Shown here one piece after another: positions 405 to 45,288 of a stretch of 64,000 bases of DNA (the stretch's first letter is position 1; every line of letters starts with the position of its first letter). Under the pieces are notes generated by a model. It had not been told where the DNA came from and did not search any database. It saw nothing but the letters and a program-made list of their open reading frames with translations. This DNA comes from a phage, in assembly GCA_020619395.1 (NCBI GenBank), contig GCA_020619395.1_4860.1, one strand, 5' to 3'. The position numbers were made by a program, and so were the translations under genes.

Positions 405-2039
405 TTAAGAATTAAACCATTCAACTTCTTCTAACTTGCGACGTGCATTCAACACCATAAACTCCGCCAGGCTATTGTGCAGTGACAAGTGAGGTATATA
501 GTTTGGCTGATCCGTCTCACACTTCAGCAGCGCAGCTGCTTCTGGTGTAGCCCTGAGATGGAACAGATACGGGTTGATGTGATCCTTGTGTAACAAGGTC
601 AATGATTCCCGTGGTGTAGATTGCGGTTCGAGATTACGCGGGTTGCGATACTCCTGAAGATAATATCTATCTAAATCTGCTTTGAGTTCAGATCGAATTG
701 GGTCGGCTGCATAACCGGCAGACATCTCAGAACGCACCATATTGCAACTTAACAGTTGCGCAACGTCATACATTCCATAATTGAGATAAGTTGCCTGTGC
801 CAACGCCATACCGTAGCGAAACGCTTCTGGTCCACATTCAGTATACGTCTTATAATGCGCGCTACGATGGAGTGCTAATGCGACTAACCATTCGTGCAAC
901 GTATAGACAGGACCGTCATGTGTTGCCAGTTGCGAATCAATCAATAACTTAACATCTGCTGGAGCGGCATTATCCAGACGCATTGTTTTCAAGAAAGAGC
1001 GGTATTCTTTAAATACGTACTCGGTACGGACGTATTCTTTCATCTGTGCAGGAGAACGTGCCTGCACCAAATCCATGGCGTTTATCTTACCCTTTTCGCC
1101 ATTGAATACCACACTTTCCGGATGCGCTTTTAACAGCACCGGCTGGTTAGAGATTTTGTTTGCAAAACCTGTTTCAATCTCTTGTTTAACCAGAAAATAC
1201 ATGCCGGTGACGATATTGTTGTTAACCATGATTTCAACCGGTAATTCACCACCGACTTCACGGACAGCCAACAATTTAATAATAGCATACGCCAGGATAT
1301 AATCTTCCATCATATCCGTGCCATAGCCCCGCACCGTAGCCAGTACCGACAAACTGGTGCTGTTCGTACCTTTGTTTGCCAGTTCTTTTTCTACCTTTTC
1401 CATCACTGTCTGTAGGAACCCACGCAGTTTCGGAATAGCAGGTAAAGACATGACTTCCGTGTCTTGAAGCATCTCCAGACAGTATGTCAGATTGTACACC
1501 ATTTTCCGGTGTGTTTCGATTGGCAAGTTCTTACCTATCGGGAACGTCCCCATGGTGAGGAACACCGGAATATACGGTTTAATCATCAGGACCAGTATCA
1601 ACAACTCGTAATAGTCCGGACGAATGTACGTCATCGCTTCCGGATAATTACTGTTCATTTCATCGTGCGTATCTTCCATGTTCTGCGGAATCCACAGCTT
1701 ATCGATGGGATACAGCTTACGATACACTTCGGCCTTGTGGAACTTCGCAATCGTCTGCACAATCTTCGGCATGTGCTTACGCTGCGTTTCCGTCGATTCG
1801 TTTGCCAGCTCGTCCAGCATCAGATACGCCATGAACAGTTCATCTTGTTCGTCTGGCGTTAAATAATCCCACACGCGTTGTAATTCCATGAAGAGAATGT
1901 TGTCGCGTGCAATCTGTTTACCTTTAACAGTGATGTAGTCGGGTGCGTTGTTATCCTTCCGATAACGTAAGCCAATAAATGTGACCTCTTGACCATGATG
2001 CTCGATTGTCATCCGGTCTTTAATCTTCATAATTTTCAT
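405..2039 (-). CDS. hypothetical protein (544 aa)
   Basis: long ORF; GGAG about 8 nt upstream of ATG; promoter-like motif at 2075-2089. Confidence 0.7.
   Translation of the reverse strand: MKIMKIKDRMTIEHHGQEVTFIGLRYRKDNNAPDYITVKGKQIARDNILFMELQRVWDYLTPDEQDELFMAYLMLDELANESTETQRKHMPKIVQTIAKFHKAEVYRKLYPIDKLWIPQNMEDTHDEMNSNYPEAMTYIRPDYYELLILVLMIKPYIPVFLTMGTFPIGKNLPIETHRKMVYNLTYCLEMLQDTEVMSLPAIPKLRGFLQTVMEKVEKELANKGTNSTSLSVLATVRGYGTDMMEDYILAYAIIKLLAVREVGGELPVEIMVNNNIVTGMYFLVKQEIETGFANKISNQPVLLKAHPESVVFNGEKGKINAMDLVQARSPAQMKEYVRTEYVFKEYRSFLKTMRLDNAAPADVKLLIDSQLATHDGPVYTLHEWLVALALHRSAHYKTYTECGPEAFRYGMALAQATYLNYGMYDVAQLLSCNMVRSEMSAGYAADPIRSELKADLDRYYLQEYRNPRNLEPQSTPRESLTLLHKDHINPYLFHLRATPEAAALLKCETDQPNYIPHLSLHNSLAEFMVLNARRKLEEVEWFNS
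657..671. promoter_or_regulatory. copy of recurrent promoter-like motif AGATAATATCTATCT, inside the 3' end of the 405-2039 ORF
   Basis: exact match to the motif found in five intergenic sites; lies 265 bp upstream of the gene starting at 392. Confidence 0.3.
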
Positions 2040-2074
2040 TATAGTTGAACTCCGCGAATAGTCGATTGCACTGA

Positions 2075-2089
2075 GATAATATCTATCTC
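2075..2089. promoter_or_regulatory. promoter-like motif AGATAATATCTATCT
   Basis: intergenic, 36 bp from the start codon at 2039; same 15-mer as at 657. Confidence 0.4.
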
Positions 2090-2174
2090 AATCTTCTTAC
2101 AGTGTGTGTTGCAGGACCACGCATAAGCGTTAATAGCCCAAGGTTTCCCTTGGGCGTATTTTTTATTTTGTTTC

Positions 2175-3736: not shown

Positions 3737-4884
3737 TCTATTTTCCTAATGATTGCAGTAACAACATCAGGGTCGTACTTCACTGATGTTAGCTCTTCGA
3801 GAACCAACCGTTCGAAGTTCTCAGGAGTAGGTTTTTCGTACACTGGGGCTTCGTTCGAAAAACTCTTTACTAACAACTCCTCTTCTTCAGAGGAGCGCAC
3901 ACGTTCTCCAGATATGTGGAACGTGTATTCTTTTTTCCACCGACTGACGTATTCGGCCATCGGTGAACCTGCGTAATACTCGACTTCAAATCGTCCAATA
4001 GCGGACGAAGGATGATTGTCGATGTATTCTAATGCAGAAAGACAAGCTGCTAACTGCGCATCAAAGTCTTCCTGTGCCCGAATCTTTTTCTGCGGGCACG
4101 CGCGTGGGTTAACCAGGAAATAATCCCTGGCAACCGTATCGGTGAAATCGACAAGAGCTACGCCTTTGTCCTCCTCTTCACCTTGAGATAGCCGCTCAGG
4201 ACTACCTACAACTCTTATCTTGTCTAATTCTTTAGGTCGATGGTCGTGCCCGATAAATATCAGGTGCTTGACTCTCGGCAACCAGAACTCCTCGTGGAAA
4301 GAACGAGGGGACTCGACAGGGAGTTGAAACTGGAAGCAGCCGTGCATGAAGATAAAGTCTAACTTCTCCAAGCCTCGTGTCGCCATCAGTTCTGCCATTT
4401 CTGCCTCAGTGGCAGCAGCATTAATTTCATCGACGCCAGCAGCTTTATATTCGTCCTGCACCCAACCTACCATCGCATCGAGAGCCGGATCGTAAAATAT
4501 CCCGATCCCTGCCAAATACAAACAGTCTGCGCCTATACTGATGTTCAGCGACTCAACTATTTTGGACTGGCCATGGTCATGGGACGGTGTTCCCTCAACG
4601 ATGCGAACTGCGGTATTAGTGGCCTTAGACCACTGGAGCAACCACGTCAAGAAGCCCACAGCTTCTTGAGAATCTTCCTGGCGAAGATGTCGGGAATCAT
4701 CAAATAAATCCCCTGCTATATAAAAGGCATCAAGCGTATTTTCGCAGCTAATGAGTACCTCACGTATCACATCCACGATGTGCCAAGTAGGCACACGTTT
4801 ATGCAACAAATGGATATCGTTAGTGTTCAAAAGGCGCTTAACGCCTTCTGGTTTCTTAGGAGGTTTAGTAATCTTCTCCATCAC
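3733..4884 (-). CDS. SbcD/Mre11-like metallophosphoesterase nuclease
   Basis: calcineurin-like phosphoesterase motifs in order: NDIHL, IAGDLFDD, GTPSHDHG, FIFMHG, IGHDHRP. Confidence 0.65.
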   Translation of the reverse strand: MMEKITKPPKKPEGVKRLLNTNDIHLLHKRVPTWHIVDVIREVLISCENTLDAFYIAGDLFDDSRHLRQEDSQEAVGFLTWLLQWSKATNTAVRIVEGTPSHDHGQSKIVESLNISIGADCLYLAGIGIFYDPALDAMVGWVQDEYKAAGVDEINAAATEAEMAELMATRGLEKLDFIFMHGCFQFQLPVESPRSFHEEFWLPRVKHLIFIGHDHRPKELDKIRVVGSPERLSQGEEEDKGVALVDFTDTVARDYFLVNPRACPQKKIRAQEDFDAQLAACLSALEYIDNHPSSAIGRFEVEYYAGSPMAEYVSRWKKEYTFHISGERVRSSEEEELLVKSFSNEAPVYEKPTPENFERLVLEELTSVKYDPDVVTAIIRKIE

Positions 4885-5539
4885 CGATCCCTACGATTGG
4901 CTGCGTTTGAGCTGGGGCTTGCACCGAGGTCTCTGCAGCTGTCGCCGTGTTTTTACCGCCGGTAATTTTATCGACGTATTCAACCAACCCTTCCGGATAT
5001 GGCAATTGACCACCCACACCGTAGCGTCGGAAAATCCAGTTCAGCAAGTCAATAATGTACTTCGCACGAACTGAATTTTCAGCCAGTGACATATTTTCGA
5101 TCCCGGTTAGGGTGTAATCGATCATCTTGTACATCTGGGTTTCACCGACGGTTGCAATCACATCAACCTGACGACGGATGTACTCAGTCTCATCGGAGAG
5201 TGAAGGTTCGCCGTCAACGGTGATTAATGAGCGGCCGGTGTTCAACAGAGCAGGGATGGTAAATAGCAGTTTGCTGTTATCAGCATCGTCCACAATCTGC
5301 AGGGGTACAAATGGACTTCCTACGTAAGCCGTCCAGGTCTCTTCGTTAAAAGTACCATCAAGCATACCGGACAACAGTGGTAAGCCCTGGCGACGGAACT
5401 GTGCTTCGGTGAACACACTGCAAACGTTCTGGCTTTCCGCCAAATCGTTTTCAATCTCTTTGAGTTTGTTATACTCAAAGCGCATCTGCTCATTCATCTG
5501 ACTTAACGGTACACCGTTAAATGTAGGTTCCTGGCTCAT
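4865..5539 (-). CDS. hypothetical protein (224 aa)
   Basis: ORF in the minus-strand gene series. Confidence 0.6.
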   Translation of the reverse strand: MSQEPTFNGVPLSQMNEQMRFEYNKLKEIENDLAESQNVCSVFTEAQFRRQGLPLLSGMLDGTFNEETWTAYVGSPFVPLQIVDDADNSKLLFTIPALLNTGRSLITVDGEPSLSDETEYIRRQVDVIATVGETQMYKMIDYTLTGIENMSLAENSVRAKYIIDLLNWIFRRYGVGGQLPYPEGLVEYVDKITGGKNTATAAETSVQAPAQTQPIVGIGDGEDY

Positions 5540-5925
5540 TACATATCCTCAATCGCACTCGACTCGGTATCCACGTACCGCTCAACATCGTACCATTCAC
5601 CGTCTACAACTTCTTGCACACGGACACTAATGAAGATGCGGTAGCGCACATCTGAATCTTTTAAAAACTCCCAGCTGGTTTCAACTTCAACGCCAGCAGG
5701 AAATACGTTCCCGTAGAGGTTCTCCAAATCCATTTTAATCTGGGCAACCATCCCGTCGGGATCTTGTGCAAACACAGCTTGCGTATACGCAAGTGATTTA
5801 ATGTTCCCACGATAAACCACCGATTGGCTATAGCCAGACTCGGTGTAATGGTTCATCAGCTCACGCGCCTTTTCCTGGGGTGTACGTGCCCAGCCACGTG
5901 TGGATAAGGTTCCTACCGCAATCAT
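5539..5925 (-). CDS. hypothetical protein (about 128 aa; start moved to internal ATG)
   Basis: internal ATG at 5925 has AGGAG 5 nt upstream; the listed longer ORF would read through a terminator hairpin. Confidence 0.5.
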   Translation of the reverse strand: MIAVGTLSTRGWARTPQEKARELMNHYTESGYSQSVVYRGNIKSLAYTQAVFAQDPDGMVAQIKMDLENLYGNVFPAGVEVETSWEFLKDSDVRYRIFISVRVQEVVDGEWYDVERYVDTESSAIEDM

Positions 5926-5970
5926 GTTAGCTCCTGTCAAATTCAAGGTAGGATGCTGCATACAGCCCCC

Positions 5971-6010
5971 AGTGAAGAAAAAAAGAGGGGCCGAAGCCCC
6001 ATCTTTTTTA
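5971..6010 (-). terminator. intrinsic terminator (A-run, GGGGC-CGAA-GCCCC hairpin, T-run; could act in both directions)
   Basis: hairpin 5987-6000 flanked by A-tract and T-tract, just downstream of the gene ending at 6008. Confidence 0.55.
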
Positions 6011-6589
6011 ACACGTCGCGCCAAGTTCCGAACAGGGATCACCATCTTCCCAGTCGAAAGCTGACATGCGTGCCCAGTTAAGTTGAATATCCACTTTATC
6101 GATTCGACTCAGTCGTACTGCACGATCTTCATTGGTAGCCCATTGCCAAATCTTATCTTCGTCGTACTTCGTCGAAATGCCCGATGTTGCTTCGCGGAAG
6201 TGGTCATCGGTACGCATATACGCATTGCCTTTGAACACATCCAACCGCGAAAAGCCGTTCTCATAACCAGTCGCCATACCGTCATTATACAACTTACGAT
6301 ATTCCGGCATGGCAACGAGGAATGGCTGTAAAGCAGCATTGGCGAACTGGAATTCACCCAACTCTTCGATCTGTCTTACCATCTCTACCGCATCGCTATA
6401 ACGTAATTTACGTGCGGTACTGAATGTTTCACGGAAACGCTCCAGTGAGATTAAGTCCTGACAATGTTCTTTTACACGGTCAACGAGATCGGGTGCCAGG
6501 CTAGACAGCGAAAACGATTCTTTGAATACGCTGAGTGCCCCGCTACCTTCGGTCTGTTTCGTCCACACCGTGCTACCTTGTAGCCACAT
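6008..6589 (-). CDS. hypothetical protein (193 aa)
   Basis: ORF followed by a terminator hairpin. Confidence 0.6.
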   Translation of the reverse strand: MWLQGSTVWTKQTEGSGALSVFKESFSLSSLAPDLVDRVKEHCQDLISLERFRETFSTARKLRYSDAVEMVRQIEELGEFQFANAALQPFLVAMPEYRKLYNDGMATGYENGFSRLDVFKGNAYMRTDDHFREATSGISTKYDEDKIWQWATNEDRAVRLSRIDKVDIQLNWARMSAFDWEDGDPCSELGATC

Positions 6590-6602
6590 TACAATACTCC
6601 TA

Positions 6603-8198
6603 TTAGCCCATCACCGCTTCCAACGGAATGCCTTCTTCATCATCCTCATCTGCTTCAATAAGGAACTGGTTCTGCATACTGATTAGCTCGTTATGTAAAA
6701 CCATGCCGTGTTCTACGCGGTCCACATCAGTAGAAGACATAAAGCCGTTATCTGGACGGAATTGGAGTGCCAACTTCATCTCAGTTTCATCGACTGGCAA
6801 ACGTACCTGGAACTGGTCGCCATCGAAATCTCCATTTGCCATCTTGATCACACGGTCAGAGATACGCAGCGAACACTGGTTAACATCGGTAACAACTTCA
6901 TCGATGTACAGCGTTTGAATAGACAACTGTACCAGCGTTGGGTTACGTAACGGTATGACCATGATCCCAAGACCGCCTGGGGATTCACGAATCAGTTCTT
7001 TAAAGATTTCATCTACAAGCGGGTCATACTGCATTGCCGCTTTCGCAACGATACGTTCACACTGCCGTGACGAATAACCGCGTCGTAGCAGTTTGTTCTC
7101 GATGTGGGTCGACATCAACCCAACCATCCAACGCCATGGTGCTTTTAACTTCCAGGCATCATGTGGTTCTGAGATAGGTGAGATGGTTGCACGACCACCG
7201 AACGGGATATGGGTAGAACCCAATTTCGCACGATAGTCACCCGGTTTACCTTCCATAGACTCACGACGGAAGTCCATGTGGAAGTACGTTAACTGACGGT
7301 TCGCCTTCAAAGCGCGACTAATCAGAAAACGTGGTTCGATCGCTTTACGCCGCGTATAGAGCAACGCGATATTTTTCACCGCATCAATAGCACCCGTGAA
7401 CACTGGGTCTACCATGACACCACGACGACCTTCCTCAGTAACGATAAGTTTAGAGGAGATTAGCGGTAAGTGTCTTGGGAAGAATGCGTGACGTTGCGTT
7501 TCGAATAGCTCCTTCCATTGTAAACGTAAGCGTTCACCTTCAGCGGCGTTATGCCGATTAGGTGCGAAGATTTCCTTCCAGGCTTCTGGCGTGGTAAGGA
7601 TGTTAAAGATACTAACGTGGTTATCAACCAGATTGCGCAAGCCACGAACGAAACCGTGTTCTTCCAATACACGTTTCACAGCATGTGCGCGTTTACCGTC
7701 TGGTTCTTCTATACGGTAATACGGGTCAATCATCCACATCATCAAGTCATTACCGCGTTCGATAGTGACCTTGTTACGTTCAAACTTCTTCAACTTGCTA
7801 TTAAAGAAAGCATTGAACATTGCCCAGAATCGTGGGTTGACGAAGTTACCCATTTCATCAGGTGCACGTAACCAGACATCGGATTCAATTCGATGTTCAG
7901 TTACAACATAGCCACACGTCGGACACTTACAACCGAGATTGTAACGATGCGCGATCGGTGCCGGACAATCCAAACTACAAATCGGTGCAGAGTTCAGTTC
8001 TTCGTCAACGATTCTGTTCTGTACCATGCGATCGATAAGTTCAGCAACTTCGATCGCATCCCCGTTAACGGCGACATCGTTAATAATAGTGGGTGGTTTA
8101 ATACCTTTGGCTGCAGCTTCTATTTGCAAATCGGACAAATAGTTATCCTGACTAACCAACCGGCCGGATATTCCGTAGAATTTTGGTACCTTTCTCAC
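6603..8198 (-). CDS. multisubunit RNA polymerase beta-prime N-terminal-like subunit (probable non-virion RNAP)
   Basis: Cys4 cluster CSLDCPAPIAHRYNLGCKCPTCG near the N-terminus; RNPTLVQLSIQ...MANGDFDGDQFQVRLP matches the bacterial beta-prime RQPTLHRLGIQ...NADFDGDQMAVHVP catalytic segment; GTG start with GAGG upstream. Confidence 0.7.
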   Translation of the reverse strand: MRKVPKFYGISGRLVSQDNYLSDLQIEAAAKGIKPPTIINDVAVNGDAIEVAELIDRMVQNRIVDEELNSAPICSLDCPAPIAHRYNLGCKCPTCGYVVTEHRIESDVWLRAPDEMGNFVNPRFWAMFNAFFNSKLKKFERNKVTIERGNDLMMWMIDPYYRIEEPDGKRAHAVKRVLEEHGFVRGLRNLVDNHVSIFNILTTPEAWKEIFAPNRHNAAEGERLRLQWKELFETQRHAFFPRHLPLISSKLIVTEEGRRGVMVDPVFTGAIDAVKNIALLYTRRKAIEPRFLISRALKANRQLTYFHMDFRRESMEGKPGDYRAKLGSTHIPFGGRATISPISEPHDAWKLKAPWRWMVGLMSTHIENKLLRRGYSSRQCERIVAKAAMQYDPLVDEIFKELIRESPGGLGIMVIPLRNPTLVQLSIQTLYIDEVVTDVNQCSLRISDRVIKMANGDFDGDQFQVRLPVDETEMKLALQFRPDNGFMSSTDVDRVEHGMVLHNELISMQNQFLIEADEDDEEGIPLEAVMG

Positions 8199-8212
8199 TC
8201 TGTCAACCTCAA

Positions 8213-8252
8213 CAAAAAAAGAGGGAAGGACGGAGGCGTTAGCCCCCGTCCG
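8213..8252 (-). terminator. intrinsic terminator
   Basis: GGACGG...CCGTCC hairpin followed on the minus strand by a 7-nt T-run, downstream of the gene ending at 8281. Confidence 0.55.
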
Positions 8253-8280
8253 TTTCCTAACTACTCAGTAACCGATTCGA

Positions 8281-10134
8281 TTACAGTTTGAAGTTGCTCA
8301 GAGACACGCCCAGACCGAAATCGGAACCGCTTGCAGACAGGCCGTTGCCAGACAGCGTGAAGTCTTCCCCACCGTTGTTGAAGAACAGAGAGGTCGCCAT
8401 CGTGTTGTAGGCATTTACACCAGTCATAGACCAGGTGCAGTTGTTACGGACGAAGTCCAGCAGGCATTTACCGAAGATCGGGTTGATAGCCATATCCAGA
8501 GATTCACCGGTAGCTTGCGGTGCTTTGGATGCGAACAGAGAAGCGGCCAGTTTCAGCATGTAGATACGCTGTTGACGCTCGTTCAGTTCACGGTGGCTGT
8601 AGGACTGTGCGTTCAGGTAGCTATAGACGTCGTTCGCGTTATCACCCAGTTTGGTAACAACGGAAATCAGGTCCATATCCTGGAAGCTACGTTTCTGTGC
8701 AGTACCGGTGTAAACACCGGAAACAGTCGGTACGGCTGCTTTCACGATGTGGCTGCAATGGATGGTACCATTGAAGGCATCGCCCAGCTGTGCTTTCAGT
8801 GCAGAAGCAAATACTGCAGTGAAGCTGGTCGCTGCAACAACTTCGCCGTTCTGATCACGCGGGGACATGGAATTCAGAATAGCGAGCAGCTGTTTCAGAG
8901 AGTTGTCGTAACCGACCGCAATTTCAGACAGCATAGTAGACAGACCACCCAGACCGTTACCGGCACGATGGCTAACTACCAGTGCTGCTTCACGCGGTGC
9001 GAACATATCCAGGCAACCTTCGATAGCTTCACGGCTACCGTCGATTTTGGATACATCAGGACGAGCGTCAGCACCCCAGGACAGGTATTCTGCCACACGG
9101 GAGAACTTGCGATCTTGTTTGTTCAGACGTTTCACAAACAGGTCACGCCAGCCACCGATTGCCGCGATTTCTGCAAATGCAGCCAGCAGCAGCAGTTGAC
9201 GTTCATACGGTGCCATTGCACCTTCAGTTTGAGAATCGACCAGACTTACTACGATTTCAGCCTGCAGCTGTTTCAGGTCGTAGACGCCGTTAACGACAGG
9301 CTTCTGACCGGTGAAACGCATGTTGACGAAACCAGTACCGGATACACGCGGATACACCTGTACCTGATTGGTGTCCAGCAGAGTCGGAGTGGCGTCGGAT
9401 ACGTTGCTTGGGCTGTGCTCAACGGTGATTGCGAAATCAGCACGTTGTGCGTGGCCGTTAGCATCCACAACCGCACCATCTTCCAGCGGCATTACTGCAG
9501 CCTGATAACGGTCATGCTTACGCAGGTTCAGCGTACCCAGGTAGCCTGCGATACGACCGAAGATGCCCATCATCATCTGACCCATCAGAGTACGTGCCCA
9601 CTCAGCATCCAGAACTTTACCCAGGTCTGGTACGGAGTTGATGATCATGAAGTTCGCATTGGTCAGACCATGCGCTTCCATGATGTTTTTCTGTACTACT
9701 GCCAGCACGTCTTTGTTGAACAGTTCAGTGATGGTGTAGTAGTCTTCCTGGCCGTTGTTGGTAGTTTCTTTCAGACGCAGAGACTGACCGCGTTCAAAGA
9801 AGATAATACCGTACAGCCAGTGGCCCTGCCATTGGCCTGCGACATACGCCGCGGAACCCATTTCGTTACCCACGCCGGCGATGGTGCCCCAGCGGAACGC
9901 GTTGAGGTATTCGTTGCTTTTCTTCAGCTCGTCCAGGAGGTTGACGAAGTGCATTGCATAGGTGCTGATGTTGCGGATGCCAAATGCGTTATCGAATTGG
10001 CTGACAGTAGAAGTACCCGGCACAGCAGTTTGCACTTTTACAGTCTCGTTGCCCAGACCGCCCAGTGGTGCGGTGTCTTGAGTCTGAGTGTTGTTCTGCT
10101 GAGCGTTGTTGTTAGAGTCAACGATTTTTACCAT
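8281..10134 (-). CDS. abundant early or structural protein (617 aa); candidate phage-nucleus shell protein (chimallin), alternatively a capsid protein
   Basis: stand-alone unit with its own promoter-like motif, conserved leader TTAAGGAATATTTAAA-ATG and terminator; adjacent to the beta-prime-like gene as in the phiKZ gp54/gp55 arrangement recalled from memory; no sequence motif confirmed. Confidence 0.35.
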   Translation of the reverse strand: MVKIVDSNNNAQQNNTQTQDTAPLGGLGNETVKVQTAVPGTSTVSQFDNAFGIRNISTYAMHFVNLLDELKKSNEYLNAFRWGTIAGVGNEMGSAAYVAGQWQGHWLYGIIFFERGQSLRLKETTNNGQEDYYTITELFNKDVLAVVQKNIMEAHGLTNANFMIINSVPDLGKVLDAEWARTLMGQMMMGIFGRIAGYLGTLNLRKHDRYQAAVMPLEDGAVVDANGHAQRADFAITVEHSPSNVSDATPTLLDTNQVQVYPRVSGTGFVNMRFTGQKPVVNGVYDLKQLQAEIVVSLVDSQTEGAMAPYERQLLLLAAFAEIAAIGGWRDLFVKRLNKQDRKFSRVAEYLSWGADARPDVSKIDGSREAIEGCLDMFAPREAALVVSHRAGNGLGGLSTMLSEIAVGYDNSLKQLLAILNSMSPRDQNGEVVAATSFTAVFASALKAQLGDAFNGTIHCSHIVKAAVPTVSGVYTGTAQKRSFQDMDLISVVTKLGDNANDVYSYLNAQSYSHRELNERQQRIYMLKLAASLFASKAPQATGESLDMAINPIFGKCLLDFVRNNCTWSMTGVNAYNTMATSLFFNNGGEDFTLSGNGLSASGSDFGLGVSLSNFKL

Positions 10135-10180
10135 TTTAAATATTCCTTAATAGTGATTGCAATCATAGTTCGGTTCGCAG

Positions 10181-10195
10181 AGATAATATCTGCCT
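10181..10195. promoter_or_regulatory. promoter-like motif AGATAATATCTGCCT, 47 bp upstream of the minus-strand start at 10134
   Basis: member of the recurrent AGATAATATC family in a divergent intergenic region. Confidence 0.4.
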
Positions 10196-10273
10196 GTAAT
10201 TTCATGGAATGCAAGTACGCCGTCGCTTACTTACAAGGCACATAGTCCAGACATTTCTCAGGAACTGTCACAT

Positions 10274-10288
10274 AGATAATATCAATCT
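10274..10288. promoter_or_regulatory. promoter-like motif AGATAATATCAATCT, upstream of the plus-strand gene at 10341
   Basis: second copy in the same divergent intergenic region. Confidence 0.4.
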
Positions 10289-10340
10289 GAGATATTTTTG
10301 ACTGTGACTGACTTCCTATGTGGAATCTAAGGAGTCTGCC

Positions 10341-11408
10341 ATGTTCAGCCAAGCCGAGTTAAACCAAGTGGCCATAAAGGGTCACAGCACGGACCCCTCC
10401 GCTATAACATTAGCGGCTCACGTAAAAAACAACAGCCAGCGTATACGCAACTACTACGAACAGCTTAATCGCAGTGCTGGTAATGGCCATTTGTTGCAAC
10501 AGGTGTTGTCTGCCATCGGCTATGCCGGTGAACCAGAGTACGAAGACATCGAATGGGCTTGCCGTCGCAAGCTTGTTCAGATTGGTAACGCCTTACGCTT
10601 GACGTCTGTTGGTGAGTACGGTCAAATCTTTAATAGCAAGTTTATCCAGGGCCAAGATGAGGTAATCTCTCTCGTAGCCCGCCCAGTAAATCCAGACCTT
10701 TCGTTCCGCGACTACACCCCCGCCCGTTACCTCTACCATGAGTATACCAACCTCAATTGGAAGTTCGGTGACGGACGGCCCCGAGGTGTTACGGTGATCG
10801 AAATCAACCTGGTTGCTTTGCTTTGGCAATATGTCAAAGGTCAGCAACACTACAGTCGCGGTACCGAACCTATTGCCACACCTGTGTATCTCCAACGACA
10901 TGTGATCTCTCGCATGTTGCCGAGCTACATGGATATCGCCTTTGTAAATATACATCGTGCGATAGCCTTCGGGAAAGAGATTGAACCGGATGAAACATTA
11001 CGTGTCATTCCTGTTCCACCGCTTCAAGCTTTAGCTGTGAAGCACGCAAAAGGCATCCGTAGTAAACTACTGGCTGCCAACCCGTTACCGGGACAAGTCT
11101 TAAACAACATCCCATTGTTCTTCCAACACCCTGATGAAGAAGGCCACACAGCACTGGAACTGATTGTCTTTCGAGAACCAGGTCAAACACTGCAGAACAC
11201 CTGGCACCAGAACATGGTGAACTGGTACTGGGCACTGTTTTGTCTTCAATACAACCAGGGGAATATGGAAAAGCATAAACGTACGATGTTGGTTGATTTG
11301 GCGCGTTATGTGGACTCTAAAGTCCTCACACGTCTGACCAAATCCTTCTATAACTTTATCCAACGGGATTTGATTATCCCGTTGACGACAGAGCTAGAAG
11401 AAAAATAA
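10341..11408 (+). CDS. hypothetical protein (about 355 aa)
   Basis: ATG at 10341 preceded by AAGGAG; the listed ORF begins at an upstream GTG; followed by a UUCG-loop terminator. Confidence 0.6.
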   Translation: MFSQAELNQVAIKGHSTDPSAITLAAHVKNNSQRIRNYYEQLNRSAGNGHLLQQVLSAIGYAGEPEYEDIEWACRRKLVQIGNALRLTSVGEYGQIFNSKFIQGQDEVISLVARPVNPDLSFRDYTPARYLYHEYTNLNWKFGDGRPRGVTVIEINLVALLWQYVKGQQHYSRGTEPIATPVYLQRHVISRMLPSYMDIAFVNIHRAIAFGKEIEPDETLRVIPVPPLQALAVKHAKGIRSKLLAANPLPGQVLNNIPLFFQHPDEEGHTALELIVFREPGQTLQNTWHQNMVNWYWALFCLQYNQGNMEKHKRTMLVDLARYVDSKVLTRLTKSFYNFIQRDLIIPLTTELEEK

Positions 11409-11458
11409 GACTTACTCTCTCCTCGCGAACACTCTTTCGAGTATTCATACTATATACA

Positions 11459-11500
11459 AAAACTACACACTTCGGTGTGTAGTTCTTTTTTTTATTTTTT
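11459..11500 (+). terminator. intrinsic terminator (ACTACACAC-TTCG-GTGTGTAGT hairpin plus T-run)
   Basis: perfect 9-bp stem with UUCG loop followed by a long T-tract. Confidence 0.65.
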
Positions 11501-11506
11501 GTCTGT

Positions 11507-11707
11507 CTAGTATTTTATCGTCTCCGTGAAGTCACTTGCGTATGGTTTACCCCACACAGTGATACTACGTTTCCGTTTGGCATCCAATGCCGTGATATGC
11601 ACCGTTTCGCCTGCCTGATGTAACTCAATATCCACGCAACCCCGTTCTTCGAGGTCGCGACGGATTGCGGTTATCATCTCTGTGGACTTCCCACTATTTC
11701 GATACAT
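11507..11707 (-). CDS. small hypothetical protein (66 aa)
   Basis: short ORF only. Confidence 0.3.
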   Translation of the reverse strand: MYRNSGKSTEMITAIRRDLEERGCVDIELHQAGETVHITALDAKRKRSITVWGKPYASDFTETIKY

Positions 11708-11763
11708 ACCCTTCCACCCCCGTAACGGTTATTGTTTGTGGTACACACGATCGTGACTTATTC

Positions 11764-14043
11764 TTACTCCTCCGCTTCTTCCCCATCCTCTTCCTCTCCA
11801 TCACGTTCAGATTTCTTAACGTACTCGCCGCTACCTAATTCTTCCTTGACCGAGTCTACGGACTCGCCGTAGTAATCCGAAAGCAGACGAGTTCTGTTCT
11901 TGTCCATCATGAAGACACCCAGACATTCCAGGATGTGATAGTAAGGTTCTACTGTGGAGAATGCGCTTCGACGTGTGTCTGCAGCATCAATCAGCTCCGG
12001 AGGAATACCGAAGTTTTCCACCAAGAACTCTGGCAGTATCAGAGTACGATAGGTGCGATAGTTGTTCTCTTCGAACCACCGTGTTGCAGTGGTCTTAATC
12101 ATCGGGTCTTTAATGTTTTCCAGCCACTCTTTAACGGCTGTTTTGTTCTCCAGGTTTACCGGAAGTTTCACGGCGTCATAAGGCGGTTCGTCCAGGTAGC
12201 CGTACTTCGGTCCAAAGATGGCGTTGTACATGCGGTGATAGTGGTAGCTCTTTTCATCATCTTCAGAGTACGCACTACGGTCTTTGACGTTGGTTGTTTT
12301 CAGGTAGCCTGCTTTACCAGCGCGAATAGAATCCACCACAACGTGCTCAATTGCAGCAACCTTTTCCAGCAGAGGCAGAATCTTAATCTTGTCACCACGT
12401 GCCACGATCTCACAGAGTTCTTTAATCGTGCGTTTGAACTCTTTCATGACCACCGGAGGAATGTTCGACGTACGTAAAGACACGCCCTTAACTTCTAACT
12501 CAGGGTCAGACTTCAACTGCCCTTCCTGGCCAGTGATGATGGAGAAATAGTGTTTTGCTTTCGTGGTTAACGCAAAGGAGTCGAACTTAAATTCGTTCTT
12601 CATTGCGTACAAAAACAGACGCTCTTTCGCCACACCGATATTCGCCGACATACTCGCCATCAGATGACGTAAGTGCTGGGTTGCGATATAAATCATCGCA
12701 TCCGATACGCGCGTAGCTTCACGACCGTAATGTTGGCCGGTATACCACTGCGCCCACCACTGTGCAGTCATCATCGTGGAGTCGGTATCAGACACCACGC
12801 CGACACGACGAACCACGTCGGGCATCCTGGCAATGTTGATTGGCAGGTTTTTGGTGGTCAGGATATTACGAATCAAGCACGCGTACTTACCGATGGTTTT
12901 CTGCAGATACACAGCTGAGCGAATCAGCTCTTTGTATTTTTCCTGCTTATCCCACGGTTCCGCTTTGTTCGTGTTTTCGTCTTTGAGTTTAACGTCAGAG
13001 AACGACTTACCTAACGGCACGATATCAGTACGGAACTGCGAGATAATGATCTGCATGTCACCGTCGATAGAGCGCTCAGCGGCATCCCAATCAGTGATCT
13101 CGTCTTCCATCTCCTCGGCAATCAGCGCGCCGATAAATCCGCGCATGAATTCATCGTTGTATTTCGCCAGGTGGTAGAAGTCACCCATGTAGACAAACGC
13201 TGCACGTACCAGCGGGCTACAATTACCGACGTAGTGACGAATGAACTCCAGCCCTTCGTCGTTACGGAAGTAAAACTCTGCAGAGTACATAACCACTTCC
13301 ATAACCTCGTCCACTGTTGGGTAGTGGAGGTTATAGAGTTCCATACACTTCTTGAACTCCGCAAAGTTAGTCAGTGTACCGATAGAAAGTAGGTGGTCGA
13401 TAACACGGGACGGCGTGTCGTAGTGACGATTACCGCCCAGTAGACGTTCGTTGCCCGCGTTACCGAACGATGTAGCCGTACGGCAGGTTGACGTCAATAC
13501 AGAGTGCGAGGACTGGTTAAAGATTACCGTGTACGGTGATGAGAATGCACCCGACATTCCGTTGTTCAACGTCTTAACAGCGTTCTGTTCGTTCTTTTTG
13601 TTAATACGCAGAACTTCATTACCCGCAGCACCTGCTGCGTACATCTCTTTCTTAACGACCGCACGCTTACGCACGTTCTCTGCGGTAAATTCAGCAAGCT
13701 TAGAGCGCTTGACGTGCTCAGGCAGATAAAAGGTCAGCGACGGTGCAGAAATAATCTGCTTATCAATCACTGTACGGAACAGTTTATCTACCGTGGTGTA
13801 TTTTTCTTCGCGATCGCCGGTCTTTTGATTGCGCACCCACATCTTACACACGGGGAATTCGTGTACTAACTCACCACCAGGTTGGAACATTTCTTCGACC
13901 TGCTGTCGACAGAACTCCAAAGAATATTTCCCGTTGGTGACGGTATGAATGTAGAGCGCCAGTTGTTCGTAGTACGCATCGATAACGTCAATGTCGCGAT
14001 GATACTCGTCTTGACTAAGACGAAATGGTGAATTGTAGTCCAC
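11764..14043 (-). CDS. large hypothetical protein (759 aa), acidic C-terminus; function unassigned
   Basis: long ORF; has VVSDTDS and KTLNNGMSG segments but no coherent polymerase motif set. Confidence 0.6.
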   Translation of the reverse strand: MDYNSPFRLSQDEYHRDIDVIDAYYEQLALYIHTVTNGKYSLEFCRQQVEEMFQPGGELVHEFPVCKMWVRNQKTGDREEKYTTVDKLFRTVIDKQIISAPSLTFYLPEHVKRSKLAEFTAENVRKRAVVKKEMYAAGAAGNEVLRINKKNEQNAVKTLNNGMSGAFSSPYTVIFNQSSHSVLTSTCRTATSFGNAGNERLLGGNRHYDTPSRVIDHLLSIGTLTNFAEFKKCMELYNLHYPTVDEVMEVVMYSAEFYFRNDEGLEFIRHYVGNCSPLVRAAFVYMGDFYHLAKYNDEFMRGFIGALIAEEMEDEITDWDAAERSIDGDMQIIISQFRTDIVPLGKSFSDVKLKDENTNKAEPWDKQEKYKELIRSAVYLQKTIGKYACLIRNILTTKNLPINIARMPDVVRRVGVVSDTDSTMMTAQWWAQWYTGQHYGREATRVSDAMIYIATQHLRHLMASMSANIGVAKERLFLYAMKNEFKFDSFALTTKAKHYFSIITGQEGQLKSDPELEVKGVSLRTSNIPPVVMKEFKRTIKELCEIVARGDKIKILPLLEKVAAIEHVVVDSIRAGKAGYLKTTNVKDRSAYSEDDEKSYHYHRMYNAIFGPKYGYLDEPPYDAVKLPVNLENKTAVKEWLENIKDPMIKTTATRWFEENNYRTYRTLILPEFLVENFGIPPELIDAADTRRSAFSTVEPYYHILECLGVFMMDKNRTRLLSDYYGESVDSVKEELGSGEYVKKSERDGEEEDGEEAEE

Positions 14044-14092
14044 GTCTGGCCCCTTGGTTTTTTACTCAGCTATAAGACTTGCGGGATACGTG

Positions 14093-14128
14093 AAAAAAGA
14101 AAAAAAATAACCCACTCCGAAGAGTGGG
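14093..14128 (-). terminator. intrinsic terminator (CCCACTC-CGAA-GAGTGGG on plus, UUCG loop on minus, then T-run)
   Basis: hairpin 14111-14128 with adjacent A-tract, downstream of the gene ending at 14135. Confidence 0.55.
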
Positions 14129-14134
14129 CTTACT

Positions 14135-14545
14135 TTAACCGGCAATACTCTCAACGATTTCAAAATCGACGTCATTGAAACCATTGGCAGCCAGGGCACG
14201 TTTAAGGTCGTCAATCTCCTGTTTGTTATCCAGGGTGACGGTGAAGCGCACCTTCGTGTTTTCGATAATCTGAACATCACGAATCCAGGCATCGGCAGCG
14301 ACTTTTGGTTTGCCGTCAACACCTTTGAAAATCAGATACGTGTATTTGTTCACATTATCTTCTGGCTGGGAAACAATGGAAGAGTAGATATTCTTCTGCT
14401 CCGCCATCACATCCATATAACTTTTGGCCATCTCGTAGCCAACGCCGGTTGCCAGAATAATTACACGCGTCTCTTGCCCTTTCAAAGGGGTGTCGTAAAC
14501 AATGTTAACTTTTTGCCCAGCGACCAGTGTGCGTAAATCGAACAT
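14135..14545 (-). CDS. hypothetical protein (136 aa)
   Basis: ORF in a tightly packed minus-strand block. Confidence 0.55.
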   Translation of the reverse strand: MFDLRTLVAGQKVNIVYDTPLKGQETRVIILATGVGYEMAKSYMDVMAEQKNIYSSIVSQPEDNVNKYTYLIFKGVDGKPKVAADAWIRDVQIIENTKVRFTVTLDNKQEIDDLKRALAANGFNDVDFEIVESIAG

Positions 14546-15144
14546 TATTCCTCCTCAGGAACATCAATAAGCAGCCTCATATCCAAAGCATTGGTCACTG
14601 GTGTTTTCGGGAAGTCCACCTTGAGAACCAACGTACGGATAGCGCCATTATGCGCCTCTAAGAACATCTTCACCGGCTCAACATAATGCGCCATAACTGC
14701 CTCCGTTACGGCGGTCGCCATTAGATCCAACGTGTAGTGCTTGAGCGTGGCCCAGTGTGAGCTGTCTTGCTCTTTGTACATCAACGCTAAATCTAACAAT
14801 GGTGTCAGCCCGTTAAAATGTGACTCGGTGCTGGCTTCCATTGCAACATTAAACTTCCACCGACGGTACTCGTCAGTCAGTAACGTAAAGAAGTCGTGCA
14901 AGAACGTAAGGTCGGTGCGAGGCAACATGCAACGAAACTCGTACGTATAGCTAGTCAGTGTTTCACGTATAAGTTCGTGTATCTCGTCCTGGTCCAATTC
15001 TTTTACGGGTATCTCCACGGTGATACGCGGCAGGCGGACTACGGTGTCAACCACCAAATCCAAAAACCGCATACCGTCCGGAAGATACCCCACGACCCCC
15101 AAGTCCACATTAATCAAGTGGTTGGCGATCACCTTGTAGATCAT
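14545..15144 (-). CDS. hypothetical protein (199 aa)
   Basis: ORF; stop/start overlap with neighbour. Confidence 0.55.
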   Translation of the reverse strand: MIYKVIANHLINVDLGVVGYLPDGMRFLDLVVDTVVRLPRITVEIPVKELDQDEIHELIRETLTSYTYEFRCMLPRTDLTFLHDFFTLLTDEYRRWKFNVAMEASTESHFNGLTPLLDLALMYKEQDSSHWATLKHYTLDLMATAVTEAVMAHYVEPVKMFLEAHNGAIRTLVLKVDFPKTPVTNALDMRLLIDVPEEE

Positions 15145-15153
15145 TCGTACTCC

Positions 15154-15585
15154 TTAACATTCAACACAGATGAGTGCGTTGCCAATTTCATTCATAAGGA
15201 GTGAAACCTTTGTCTTTTTTGCTCCGTCTTCTGGAGTCAAGCCAGCCATGCCCCACACACGTTCTATCACGGAAAGGATTTCATAGAACCGAACATCATC
15301 CTTAATCCCACTGCTCATGCTGTAGCAGTTTAGAGGCAGCACCTTTTCAGTACCCCACATCCCGCGCAACTGTTCCAGTATCAACGCAGGGTCTGGGGGA
15401 ATAAAAGTAAGAAAGTTCTTACCCTTACCTAGCCCATTAACAATAGAACGAACCGTTAATTCGGCGTAACTGGCCAGAAACAAATAAGCGACAGCGGGCT
15501 CGATCTCGCTAGTATCAGCAATCTCGGCCCGTGCCAACAACGACTCATATTTGAAGACTTCGCCTATGGTCATGTACAGTTTCAT
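15154..15585 (-). CDS. hypothetical protein (143 aa)
   Basis: ORF in series. Confidence 0.55.
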   Translation of the reverse strand: MKLYMTIGEVFKYESLLARAEIADTSEIEPAVAYLFLASYAELTVRSIVNGLGKGKNFLTFIPPDPALILEQLRGMWGTEKVLPLNCYSMSSGIKDDVRFYEILSVIERVWGMAGLTPEDGAKKTKVSLLMNEIGNALICVEC

Positions 15586-16070
15586 TCGCAGATTAACACC
15601 ACATCGTTAAAACTATCACCTACATACGTTTGATATCGACCCGGATACAGCGACTCTATCAATCCAGCGAAACCAGTTAAGTTTGTTAACTCTTCGACCA
15701 ACAAACTTACCGCAGCGCCGAAGGCAGCTTGATGTTGTTCGGGCGAACCTTGTGCTGCCAGAAACGTCGTATCGACAGACATTTCTTTAGCGAACTGGTC
15801 AACGGACAGACCATCGGTCACCAACTCCCAATTGCCCAGAGGTTCAAGCGTGTCTTCCTGTAACAAATCAACCATTGTCGATGGGTCACGAGTTTTCACA
15901 CCGATGATATACGCAAACGCAAAACGTTGATAAAAATCACGTATCTGCGTTTCATCAATCTCCAGGTTACTGGCTTCCAATACACGCAATGCTGCTTCGC
16001 GAACGTGCTCGTAAAACCGAGTCGCGCTATATTGGTTCGCAATATCCGCCACATCAAACAGAACGCTCAT
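15582..16070 (-). CDS. hypothetical protein (162 aa)
   Basis: ORF; 4-nt overlap with neighbours. Confidence 0.55.
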   Translation of the reverse strand: MSVLFDVADIANQYSATRFYEHVREAALRVLEASNLEIDETQIRDFYQRFAFAYIIGVKTRDPSTMVDLLQEDTLEPLGNWELVTDGLSVDQFAKEMSVDTTFLAAQGSPEQHQAAFGAAVSLLVEELTNLTGFAGLIESLYPGRYQTYVGDSFNDVVLICE

Positions 16071-16576
16071 ACACGACCTCCGAGATTACCGATAAGCAAA
16101 TCGATAACAGGCAGAAGTTGTGGGGTGATTCGCTCGTACGCTTCCTGGCTGGCAAACTGTGGGAATTTATCACCACCGTTATAGTCTAATAAGAATTCGA
16201 CATCCGCCGGATTGCGCGTTGTGTATTGTGCACCGACCCAACGACCGTAGTGAGTAAACCAATAAGGAGACTGCGATACGGCGGTCATATACGCACGACC
16301 GATGTTTTGAATTGCGGTGCCGTAAGTGATTACTTGCTCATTTTCCAACACAACGCCGTGCGCATTCAGTGTACGAGAAACAAACCCAAAGGTATTGTTC
16401 ATCATAAACTTTAACTCACTACCAATGGTTCCACGTTCCACGAAGCTCATGGCGGTATTGATTATCGAGTTCAAATCGTCATTCACTTCGCGGAGCACAT
16501 CGTTTGGCGAAAACTCCGTTAACGGCCCAGCCAATAACTGATAGCCGGGGATATAAAAATGAGATCGCTCAATCAT
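16067..16576 (-). CDS. hypothetical protein (169 aa)
   Basis: ORF in series. Confidence 0.55.
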   Translation of the reverse strand: MIERSHFYIPGYQLLAGPLTEFSPNDVLREVNDDLNSIINTAMSFVERGTIGSELKFMMNNTFGFVSRTLNAHGVVLENEQVITYGTAIQNIGRAYMTAVSQSPYWFTHYGRWVGAQYTTRNPADVEFLLDYNGGDKFPQFASQEAYERITPQLLPVIDLLIGNLGGRV

Positions 16577-17262: not shown

Positions 17263-17272
17263 GTCGCTGGGG

Positions 17273-18153: not shown

Positions 18154-18183
18154 CGAGAAATGCTCCTTAAGGATAATTCACGA

Positions 18184-18198
18184 AGATAATATCTATGC
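18184..18198. promoter_or_regulatory. promoter-like motif AGATAATATCTATGC in a divergent intergenic region
   Basis: same motif family; sits between the minus start at 18153 and the plus start at 18317. Confidence 0.4.
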
Positions 18199-18316
18199 AA
18201 AATTTCTTCGAGTATGGTGCGCACATAAAGGTCGTAAAACGTATTTTAATGTCAGGCAATGGGATAGCATTACCCGATGGTATGAGTTGTCCTACGAGCT
18301 TCATAGGAGCCTTAGA

Positions 18317-21090: not shown

Positions 21091-21150
21091 GATGCTTACC
21101 TTTTATAGTCGAGTTGGGGGAATTCAGATGAGGCTTTCTCATCTCACTTA

Positions 21151-21165
21151 GGTAATATCTATCTG
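21151..21165. promoter_or_regulatory. promoter-like motif GGTAATATCTATCTG (variant)
   Basis: shares the core TAATATCTATCT; about 60 bp upstream of the start at 21090. Confidence 0.35.
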
Positions 21166-21181
21166 TGAATATTTGGAATAC

Positions 21182-28670: not shown

Positions 28671-28742
28671 TGGGTAAAATCTCCTTCAGGTATACTCTCA
28701 GTATGATAACATATATCCGTAAATTTTTAGAGGTTTAGTGCC

Positions 28743-42003: not shown

Positions 42004-42675
42004 TTAATCGTGTGAAAGACGAGCTTCGAGGTCGTCGATAATGGTATCTGTGAAATAGCTAATATCTAGCTGCTCCACGAAATCCCTGCGTTCCAGAATG
42101 CGCTCTGCGAAGAGCGTACCGTACCAACTAGGGACATTACTAACACCGTTGCGTCCGAACTTCTGTTGGACGTGACCAACGGCATGGAATTTTGCATCGC
42201 CTTTACTTTTACCCTGTTCACGGGCAAACAGATAAGAACGGTGCATGTAATTGCTCACGTCATCTACAGACGGTATACCACGGTCAGCTGCGGCAACTAT
42301 CTCAGAGACAATCCCGTTGTAGTTCCCTTTGTGAGAACTGCGGTGTTCTAAGACTGCATGGGCAATCGTCAAACATTCATCATCGGTAAGTTTATACTTA
42401 CGTTTGAGCACTGGCTTGTTATCCAGTATCCAGCTATACCCTTTGATGTGGTGCGACGCACGGTCTTCTTTGGTAGAGAAGATATCGTGAGCTGCCACCG
42501 CAATCAGTATCAGCTTCAGGTGTTCGGTTTGCCCAAGCATATACGCGATACGAATCGCATTTGATTTAACTGAGTTGATGTGATCCATGCGATGCGCACT
42601 ATCGGTATAACGATAGAAGTCGCGGAATTGACGAACCAGTTTTTCCCAAAGTTTGTTGAGTTCAGTGCCCTGCAT
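42004..42675 (-). CDS. HD-domain metal-dependent phosphohydrolase
   Basis: H...HD...H...H pattern: AHRMDH, AAHDIF, HAVLEHRSSH; conserved leader GTAAGGAATATTTAC-ATG. Confidence 0.5.
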   Translation of the reverse strand: MQGTELNKLWEKLVRQFRDFYRYTDSAHRMDHINSVKSNAIRIAYMLGQTEHLKLILIAVAAHDIFSTKEDRASHHIKGYSWILDNKPVLKRKYKLTDDECLTIAHAVLEHRSSHKGNYNGIVSEIVAAADRGIPSVDDVSNYMHRSYLFAREQGKSKGDAKFHAVGHVQQKFGRNGVSNVPSWYGTLFAERILERRDFVEQLDISYFTDTIIDDLEARLSHD

Positions 42676-43552: not shown

Positions 43553-43698
43553 TGTAAATACTCCTTCTGGGTAATAGTCGATTAAAGCGTTAACGTGTAA
43601 CGCTCACCTAAGTAATATATATCTCAGTTCTTTTTGAATGCAATTAATAAAATAAAAAGACTCACCCGTATCCGAAGATAGGATGAGCCTAGTGGAGC

Positions 43699-45285: not shown

Positions 45286-45288
45286 TTT

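Follow-up and report, generated by a model that had tools for sequence, protein, structure and literature searches.

A recurrent 15-mer in an SPN3US-like jumbo phage is very probably the core of a phiKZ-type early promoter

A 15-nt motif recurs in a 64,000-nt stretch of phage DNA (the whole stretch analysed, hereafter the window), and the repeated 15-mer is confirmed as a real feature. According to our analysis, it is very probably the core of the early promoter of the phiKZ type (Chimalliviridae), in the version of the SPN3US group, which would be read by the virion RNA polymerase (vRNAP); from the comparison with related phages we infer its start sites, its early timing and its recognition by the virion enzyme. 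The promoter would consist of an A-rich block near -30, a T-rich TtTc block near -20 and the core AGAT-A-[G/T]ATATTA[T/C]-CT near -10. In the proposed mechanism, the multisubunit vRNAP (gp42, gp218, gp240, gp241 and gp244) would enter the cell together with the injected DNA and initiate at the motif sites without the host RNAP, switching on the early operons. Two tandem copies, 93 bp apart, would both drive the minus-strand operon encoding chimallin and the beta'1 subunit of the non-virion RNAP (nvRNAP), the products of which may be required before others and in large amounts. Elements of this class, with their consensus, have already been published for phiKZ, OBP, N1M2, 201phi2-1 and AR9.

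Identity of the phage and occurrence of the motif

Positions 9000-13000 of the window match the Seoulvirus phages, namely Salmonella phage SPN3US and its relatives, at 98-99% identity, and more distant relatives, with 60-80% identity, infect Erwinia. Relative to the SPN3US record the window is reverse-complemented, and therefore most genes of window 1-24000 are located on the minus strand. SPN3US belongs to the phiKZ group, whose jumbo phages encode two split multisubunit RNAPs and carry one of them in the virion (PMC5694885; PMC7598289). A search of the accessible literature for work on transcripts or promoters in SPN3US and close relatives found none, the key primary papers lying outside that search, and the SPFM phage paper makes no mention of promoters.

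The whole 64,000-nt window was searched with the query AGATAATATCTATCT, allowing up to two mismatches. Seven matches were obtained, all on the plus strand (658, 2074, 10181, 10274, 18184, 21150 and 42057), versus 0.10 expected, and none of 100 dinucleotide-preserving shuffles reached seven. The six sites listed in the first-pass annotation were all recovered; the positions that it gave for three of them (10181, 10274 and 18184) are exact, while those for the other three (657, 2075 and 21151) are each off by one. The core, which it described as nearly palindromic, is an 11-bp palindrome with an odd centre, AGATA-A-TATCT.

A position weight matrix (PWM) of 32 nt, trained on 22 SPN3US sites (see below), gave a bimodal distribution of scores in the window, with eight sites at or above 28.9 (28.9-42.7) and everything else at or below 10.7. 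All eight strong copies are on the minus strand; they comprise the six sites mentioned above and two new copies, at 28704-28718 and 43610-43624. A plus-strand reading of the motif was ruled out, as plus-strand readings scored 9-11 versus 36-39 on the minus strand. The earlier observation that the motif keeps a plus-strand orientation regardless of the strand of the nearest gene arose because the motif had been read on the wrong strand: the functional reading is the minus strand, and all copies serve minus-strand genes. In that reading the 15-mer is AGATAGATATTATCT, which lies 34, 46, 30 and 59 nt 5' of the minus-strand starts 2039, 10134, 18153 and 21090, respectively. The proposed proximity to start codons thus holds at these four starts (30-59 nt) but not for the distal copy upstream of 10134, which is 139 nt away. 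This distal copy and the one at 658 are high-scoring copies that are, respectively, distant from a start codon and intragenic; the latter lies within ORF 405-2039, as had been noticed before. The reference annotation places seven of the eight strong sites between genes, and the mechanical ORF call puts the 18184 site within an over-extended plus-strand ORF. The seventh match of the 15-mer search, AGCTAGATATTAGCT at 42057..42071 (minus strand, within ORF 42004-42675), carries two mismatches, lacks the -30, -20 and GTGA blocks and scores 7.1, and it is doubtful as a copy of the motif.

Architecture of the motif in SPN3US

The whole annotated SPN3US record was scanned with up to three mismatches, and 30 raw matches were found versus about 3.8 expected. 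Removal of three matches at chance level and of the echoes that the palindromic core produces on the reverse strand left 22 sites. Accordingly, SPN3US carries at least 22 copies, all on the plus strand of the record and all on the coding strand of the next gene. Nineteen of the 22 are located in annotated spacers, and each site has a co-oriented gene 30-140 nt downstream. With a non-coding share of 12%, summed from the gaps in the gene table, the binomial probability of at least 19 intergenic sites among 22 is 3e-15.

Alignment of the 22 sites revealed a directional element of about 31 nt (on the minus strand in the window), with the consensus A-A-n-a-a-a-T-t-T-c-AGATAGATATTAtCT-a-n-G-t-G-A. 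When positions are numbered from the first base of the 15-mer, the element begins with the block A-A at -10 and -9 (A at -10 in 21 of 22 sites), followed by the moderately conserved block T-t-T-c at -4 to -1, the block AGATA-[G/T]-ATATTA-[T/C]-[C/T]-T at 0 to 14, which holds several invariant positions, and the block a-n-G-t-G-A at 15 to 20 (G at 19 in 21/22, A at 20 in 20/22). The core [G/T]ATATTA[T/C] is invariant or nearly so across all 22 sites. Two sub-variants can be distinguished, AGATAGATATTATCT and AGATATATATTAC[CT]T; the latter is found in six or seven sites, and seven sites carry TATATTAC exactly. Judging from the sequence, transcription probably starts at the conserved G-A, 5-6 nt past the 15-mer. 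In 11 of 21 SPN3US leaders, a stable hairpin begins no more than 2 nt from the conserved G, with z from -2 to -4; the stems of these hairpins differ in sequence, and their common starting point fits an RNA 5' end at that position.

The palindromic core raises the question of whether the motif is the operator of a dimeric phage or host regulator, for example a repressor that shuts off early genes, rather than a promoter. The dyad does extend beyond the 11-bp AGATA-N-TATCT: in the consensus it reaches TCAGATAGATA-T-TATCTanGtGA, where 9 of 11 positions to either side of the centre are symmetric, and gp101 of SPN3US, a 'putative transcriptional regulator', is itself preceded by a copy. However, the orientation relative to the downstream gene is identical in 22 of 22 sites, which has a probability of 2e-7 under a symmetric-site model, and all 22 have T as the central base of the sense strand. 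In addition, asymmetry is seen at positions 1-2 (G, A) and 16-17 (n, G), no mirror partner exists for the conserved AA at -30, and the strand difference in PWM scores given above also speaks against a symmetric site. Moreover, the phiKZ-like sub-variant (AGATATATATTACCT) breaks the palindrome: in the AGATATATATTAC[CT]T sites two of the five core pairs are lost, with no matching change on the other side. These properties do not support a symmetric operator, and a dimeric regulator as the primary reader, which the first-pass annotation had offered beside the promoter reading, is very unlikely.

Comparison with known promoters

According to a review, a conserved AT-rich motif of about 10 nt, centred near -10, precedes the presumed early operons in all jumbo phages that encode RNAPs, and this motif has turned out to be the early promoter of the virion RNAP wherever it was tested (PMC7598289). 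In phiKZ and AR9, initiation by the virion RNAP is independent of the host RNAP and of new protein synthesis (PMC7598289). The early promoters of phiKZ and 201phi2-1 are conserved at -10, -20 and -30 (PMC11512511), and those of phiKZ have been described as an extended -10 element with a T-rich block upstream of -19 (PMC8244752). This layout fits the SPN3US motif if transcription starts at the conserved G-A.

The published early consensus sequences are TBYAWWWWWTTTCARRYAKATATTATYWAAGTGWA for N1M2, BSHAWWWWWTTTYARRYAKATATTATYWWADTG for OBP, ...BTATATTACDWHDGTG for 201phi2-1 and TATATTAC for phiKZ (PMC7058600 Table 2). The SPN3US consensus agrees at every position with those of N1M2 (AWWWWWTTTCARRYAKATATTATYWAAGTGWA) and OBP, beginning with the upstream A and ending with the downstream GTGA; it is essentially identical over the full length (RRYAKATATTATYWAAGTG, with AWWWWWTTTC upstream), and the extended dyad symmetry is present in the OBP and N1M2 consensus as well. 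N1M2 has 31 sites per genome, one of its targets being also an RNAP beta subunit gene. OBP and N1M2 represent other genera and hosts, and their sites, too, are bioinformatic predictions (PMC7058600).

Accounts of phiKZ (Ceyssens 2014, as cited in PMC7598289; Wicke 2021, PMC8244752) report 28-32 early promoter sites that share the core TATATTAC and are used by the virion RNAP. Our inspection of the phiKZ genome showed that the sites with the exact core read AAAAAAATTTGAGAT-T-TATATTAC-TAAnnTG, in the same register as the SPN3US motif, and that they are located upstream of PHIKZ031, 036, 041.3, 054 (nuclear shell), 058.1 and 068. One SPN3US sub-variant contains this exact phiKZ core. The two phages share the layout of about 31 nt (an A-run, TTT, (G)AGAT, [T/G]ATATTA[C/T] and, about 6 nt further on, a TG), their targets, which are the gene of the nuclear shell and those of nvRNAP subunits, and a comparable count of sites per genome, predominantly on the main coding strand. 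They differ in the dominant core, which is the palindromic GATATTATC here versus TATATTAC in phiKZ, about one quarter of the sites here keeping the phiKZ form. In the Bacillus jumbo phage AR9, which also has a virion multisubunit RNAP, an over-represented AT-rich motif near -10 was predicted as the early promoter of that enzyme and then confirmed by dRNA-seq (PMC5312081); unlike the present phage, AR9 has another consensus, a uracil-containing genome and no phage nucleus.

The analysed element thus combines an AT-rich core of about 10 nt related to TATATTAC with T-rich -20 and A-rich -30 blocks in a fixed register, in a phage with two split multisubunit RNAPs, one of them packaged (vRNAP genes within 46155-54543, nvRNAP beta'1 at 6603-8198), and the copies are co-oriented before early operons and absent before virion and vRNAP genes. 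As a positional homolog of the phiKZ/OBP/N1M2 early-promoter consensus, the motif would be read by the virion RNAP, and the promoter for a phage RNAP proposed in the first-pass annotation is well supported.

The core TATTAT might also be regarded as the -10 box of host sigma-70 promoters, at which the Salmonella RNAP would transcribe the early genes, as the host enzyme does in many phages; it matches TATAAT at five of six positions, and the sites lie at typical distances upstream of genes. Nevertheless, a sigma-70 scan of window 1-20000 yielded 24 sites versus 27.5 expected, and none of them coincides with a copy of the motif; -35/-10 hexamers at the 16-18 nt spacing of a bacterial sigma-70 promoter are thus not found at the copies in this part. 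The T-rich block is only about 5 nt upstream of the core, versus 16-18 nt for a -35 box. Furthermore, the conservation spans positions irrelevant to sigma-70, and the homologous phiKZ promoters are independent of the host RNAP (PMC7598289). Host promoters are hence a highly improbable explanation.

Alternatively, the inverted repeat could be extruded as a DNA hairpin and be recognised in that form, as in the virion-RNAP promoters of phage N4. This would agree with a virion-packaged polymerase and a palindromic core, and the nvRNAP of AR9 can use single-stranded promoter DNA (PMC7598289). However, single-stranded folds of the eight window sites range from 0 to -4.4 kcal/mol with structures that differ from site to site, five of the eight fold no better than shuffled sequences, and the phiKZ-type sub-variant has no hairpin. 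The stable 5-7 bp hairpin with a small loop that characterizes N4-type promoters is not found, and recognition of this kind appears exceedingly improbable.

Tandem copies upstream of the phage-nucleus shell gene

The spacer 10135-10340 separates divergent genes, and both copies that the first-pass annotation assigned to it indeed lie there. They are arranged in tandem, 93 bp apart, and both point to the ATG at 10134 and away from the gene at 10341. The minus-strand gene 8281..10134 corresponds to gp22 of SPN3US and is assigned to chimallin (ChmA, the phage-nucleus shell protein) because its product matches Asesino gp39, with 66% identity over the full length; Asesino gp39 is a phage nucleus shell protein according to GFP tagging (PMC11724907). 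A PDB sequence search with the 8281-10134 product gave zero matches, and BLASTP against phiKZ gp54 showed no similarity. The second gene of the operon (6603..8198, minus strand, SPN3US gp23) encodes a protein with 81% identity to Asesino gp40, which has been named nvRNAP beta'1 (PMC11724907); it carries the catalytic motif NGDFDGD and matches phrog_2987 and Pfam RNA_pol_Rpb1_2. These two gene identities suggest that the copies in the spacer are tandem early promoters of both genes.

The divergent neighbour (10341..11408, plus strand, SPN3US gp21 homolog) occupies the syntenic position of phiKZ gp52, annotated as a 'structural head protein', to which it shows weak similarity (E = 3e-8 over 82 aa); it probably encodes a head protein and belongs to the late genes. 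The motif does not serve it, the plus-strand PWM reading being 10.7; the copy at 10274 would act as an additional promoter, farther upstream, for the minus-strand chimallin gene. The order of genes in the window, namely DNA polymerase, reverse-strand head-protein gene, shell gene and nvRNAP subunit, is also that of phiKZ. PHIKZ054 has a primary transcription start site (TSS) with an early motif and a second TSS of the middle type (PMC8244752); in contrast to this combination of one early and one middle promoter, the shell gene has two early-type copies here.

The proximal promoter extends over 10174..10205 (minus strand; 15-mer 10181-10195; PWM 31.7), and its predicted start near 10176/10175 would leave about 42 nt of leader before the ATG at 10134. 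The distal promoter (10267..10298, minus strand; 15-mer 10274-10288; PWM 39.2) has its predicted start near 10269, with a leader of about 135 nt. Four relatives have orthologous copies of the motif, in each case co-oriented with the gene that follows, so that three genera (Seoulvirus, Erskinevirus and Machinavirus) are represented: pEa_SNUABM_29 has nine sites, among them the tandem pair and the intragenic copy, SPAsTU five and Huxley (Machinavirus) six, both including the tandem pair, and Asesino (Erskinevirus) four. When the spacers of six phages are aligned, the two boxes fall within conserved stretches. The distal copy is kept in all six, and the proximal core with the downstream GTGA-like block is kept in SPN3US, pEa_SNUABM_29, SPAsTU, Asesino and Huxley; the proximal box of Asesino has degenerate edges and retains GATATTAT and GTGAAC.

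Other copies in the window

A putative early promoter at 2067..2098 (minus strand; 15-mer 2074-2088; PWM 36.3) precedes ORF 405-2039, the SPN3US gp30 homolog, and has orthologous sites in pEa_SNUABM_29, Asesino and Huxley. The intragenic copy within the same ORF (651..682, minus strand; 15-mer 658-672; PWM 33.0), where the encoded protein reads ...DLDRYYLQEY..., probably acts as an internal promoter of the gene that follows, the gp31 homolog, which lies about 260 nt downstream and runs off the start of the window. This copy is kept in the Seoulvirus relatives pEa_SNUABM_29 (score 23.5) and SPAsTU (with three mismatches), and it was not found when sought in Asesino and Huxley.

The copy at 18177..18208 (minus strand; 15-mer 18184-18198; PWM 36.4) precedes ORF 17833-18153, the gp9 homolog and the first gene of a long minus-strand cluster. 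Its sequence GCATAGATATTATCTTCGTGA is near-identical at the orthologous position in SPAsTU and Asesino and variant in Huxley. The highest score in the window, 42.7, belongs to the candidate promoter at 21143..21174 (minus strand; 15-mer 21150-21164) before ORF 20143-21090, the gp5 homolog. It is preceded by a terminator-like hairpin with a T-run (21183-21226) and followed by a 5' leader hairpin, GAGAUGAG/CUCAUCU (-8.7 kcal/mol, z = -3.1), and orthologs exist in pEa_SNUABM_29 and Huxley.

The first-pass annotation missed two candidate early promoters. One of them (28697..28728, minus strand; 15-mer 28704-28718; PWM 28.9) is located in a 72-nt divergent spacer, 33 nt before ORF 27537-28670 (gp263 homolog), and has an orthologous site at position 12 of L007. 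The other (43603..43634, minus strand; 15-mer 43610-43624; PWM 37.7) is the phiKZ-like sub-variant AGATATATATTACTT, 57 nt before ORF 43154-43552 (gp249 homolog), and is followed by a 5' hairpin (-7.7 kcal/mol) and the box AATCGACTAT (43574-43583). The sub-variant sites form repeated cassettes of an early promoter, a 5' stem-loop and a conserved leader box. Similar 'promoter-early stem-loop' (PeSL) cassettes have reportedly been described in T4-type phages by Arbiol, Comeau and Krisch in 2010; the T4 cassettes differ in using the host sigma-70 RNAP. The leader box AATCGACTAT is modestly enriched in the window (9 versus 3.6), and its enrichment is not significant in L003 or L004; an exact copy at 44364 is located in coding sequence and has no promoter.

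RNA polymerase genes and the logic of the targets

The virion-located vRNAP subunits of SPN3US are gp42, gp218, gp240, gp241 and gp244 (PMC5694885). Three of the five subunit genes are found on the minus strand of the window, namely beta'N (gp240, 52930-54543), betaN (gp241, 48706-52911) and beta'C (gp244, 46155-46883); the assignments follow PMC5694885, the products match phrog_2986, phrog_3148 and phrog_2926, respectively, and an unrelated ORF sits among the genes. A PWM scan of 44000-56000, which covers them, gave zero matches. Meanwhile, in the scan of the whole SPN3US record, no motif was found before the vRNAP genes (gp42, gp218, gp240, gp241 and gp244) or before the capsid, sheath and terminase genes. 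The copies precede gp22-gp23, encoding chimallin and nvRNAP beta'1, and gp34-gp35, the home of the remaining RNAP-like genes. Presence before nvRNAP genes together with absence before vRNAP genes is the pattern expected if the injected enzyme switches on the genes of the second enzyme. In 201phi2-1, some nvRNAP genes have no nearby early promoter (PMC11512511), and thus this argument from gene logic is not universal.

The same distribution bears on a further possibility, namely promoters of the middle or late class that the nvRNAP would use. Both phage RNAPs are encoded in the genome, and some phiKZ genes have promoters of more than one class (PMC8244752). Yet the middle and late motifs of phiKZ are different (weak AT-rich/TACT near -22 and TATG at the start, respectively), and the motif precedes the nvRNAP subunit genes, which their own product cannot be the first to transcribe. 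It is also absent from structural and vRNAP genes. A middle or late class is accordingly highly unlikely, and early promoters of the virion RNAP remain the preferred reading.

The dyad symmetry and significance of the motif

The symmetry might have a role of its own within an early promoter. To our knowledge, no sigma-like specificity factor of the virion RNAP has been described. Since the symmetry is extended and such a factor is not known, the dyad could mark the site of a dimeric factor layered on the directional promoter, either a specificity factor injected with the vRNAP or a repressor made early that would end early transcription. We regard such an arrangement as unlikely; the extended dyad symmetry, with its room for a second, dimeric reader, is the small residual novelty of the present motif.

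For annotation, the motif would mark the early transcription units of SPN3US-like phages, with at least eight copies in the window and at least 22 in the SPN3US genome, and it would separate early genes from oppositely oriented late genes. It also points to a conserved tandem pair as the drivers of the phage-nucleus shell gene and the nvRNAP beta'1 gene. As SPN3US is a genetic model with vRNAP-null amber mutants, the sites may serve as ready templates for the question of how virion RNAPs recognise their promoters.

Extra motif copies and the leader cassette

Two strong minus-strand copies of the motif, which we read as a phiKZ-type early promoter, are absent from the list in the first-pass annotation. 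One lies at 28704-28718, upstream of ORF 27537-28670, and the other at 43610-43624, upstream of ORF 43154-43552; the latter is of the phiKZ-like sub-variant, AGATATATATTACTT. Downstream of many motif copies, and above all of the sub-variant copies, a repeated leader cassette is found. It occurs on the minus strand of the window at 21100-21145 and 43570-43605, and in the record of the related Salmonella phage SPN3US at 56294, 65413, 94239, 113986, 165687 and 223277 (loci L003-L006). The cassette opens with a hairpin that begins at the predicted +1 and whose stem sequences vary between copies with the pairing kept, followed by the box AATCGACTAT(TA), located about 10 nt ahead of the Shine-Dalgarno sequence AAGGAG. 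This leader resembles the promoter-stem-loop cassettes of T4-type phages. The box AATCGACTAT is modestly enriched within the window (9 occurrences versus 3.6 expected). An exact AATCGACTAT at 44364-44373 (minus) is situated within a coding region, with GAGTGAC just before it and no promoter copy upstream, and could be a relic or a chance occurrence.

A core-like sequence was also detected within ORF 42004-42675, where AGCTAGATATTAGCT (42057-42071) forms a near-perfect 15-bp palindrome, identical in SPN3US. However, it lacks any flanking block of the motif and scores 7.1 against the weight matrix built from 22 SPN3US sites; it may be a chance match or a weak internal site.

Transcription-unit boundaries and the ends of the SPN3US record

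Directly upstream of the promoter at 21150, a terminator-like hairpin, GTCCTCACTCttcgGAGTGAGGAC, with a T-run is present at 21183-21226 (minus). In SPN3US, a comparable hairpin or T-run stands in front of at least 8 of the 22 sites. These elements ahead of motif sites mark transcription-unit boundaries. The same promoter lies on the gp5 side of a stretch (~21000-29000) that spans the arbitrary start/end of the linear SPN3US record, the gp263 side being at 28704. Over this tRNA-containing stretch the window is ~0.9 kb longer than SPN3US. The junction and the extra length would fit a genome that is circularly permuted and has a variable region.

Candidate later starts in the chimallin spacer

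The spacer between the chimallin gene and the divergent head-protein-like gene carries a small conserved hairpin (10216-10231, GTAAGC-GACG-GCTTAC-like) inside the leader transcribed from the distal promoter. The GCGACGGC of this hairpin is invariant, and compensatory or wobble changes occur across the six aligned phages. Between both early promoters, TATGT at 10241-10245 (minus) is invariant in the same alignment amid variable neighbouring sequence, and is a candidate later-phase start of the chimallin gene, as an analogue of the second transcription start site of phiKZ PHIKZ054 (PMC8244752). On the plus strand, all six phages share an unchanged CCTATGTGG, which in the window is at 10317-10320, 21 nt 5' of the start codon ATG at 10341. 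Since it includes TATG, the signature of phiKZ late promoters (T-3 A T G+1), CCTATGTGG qualifies as a candidate late promoter of the head-protein-like gene.
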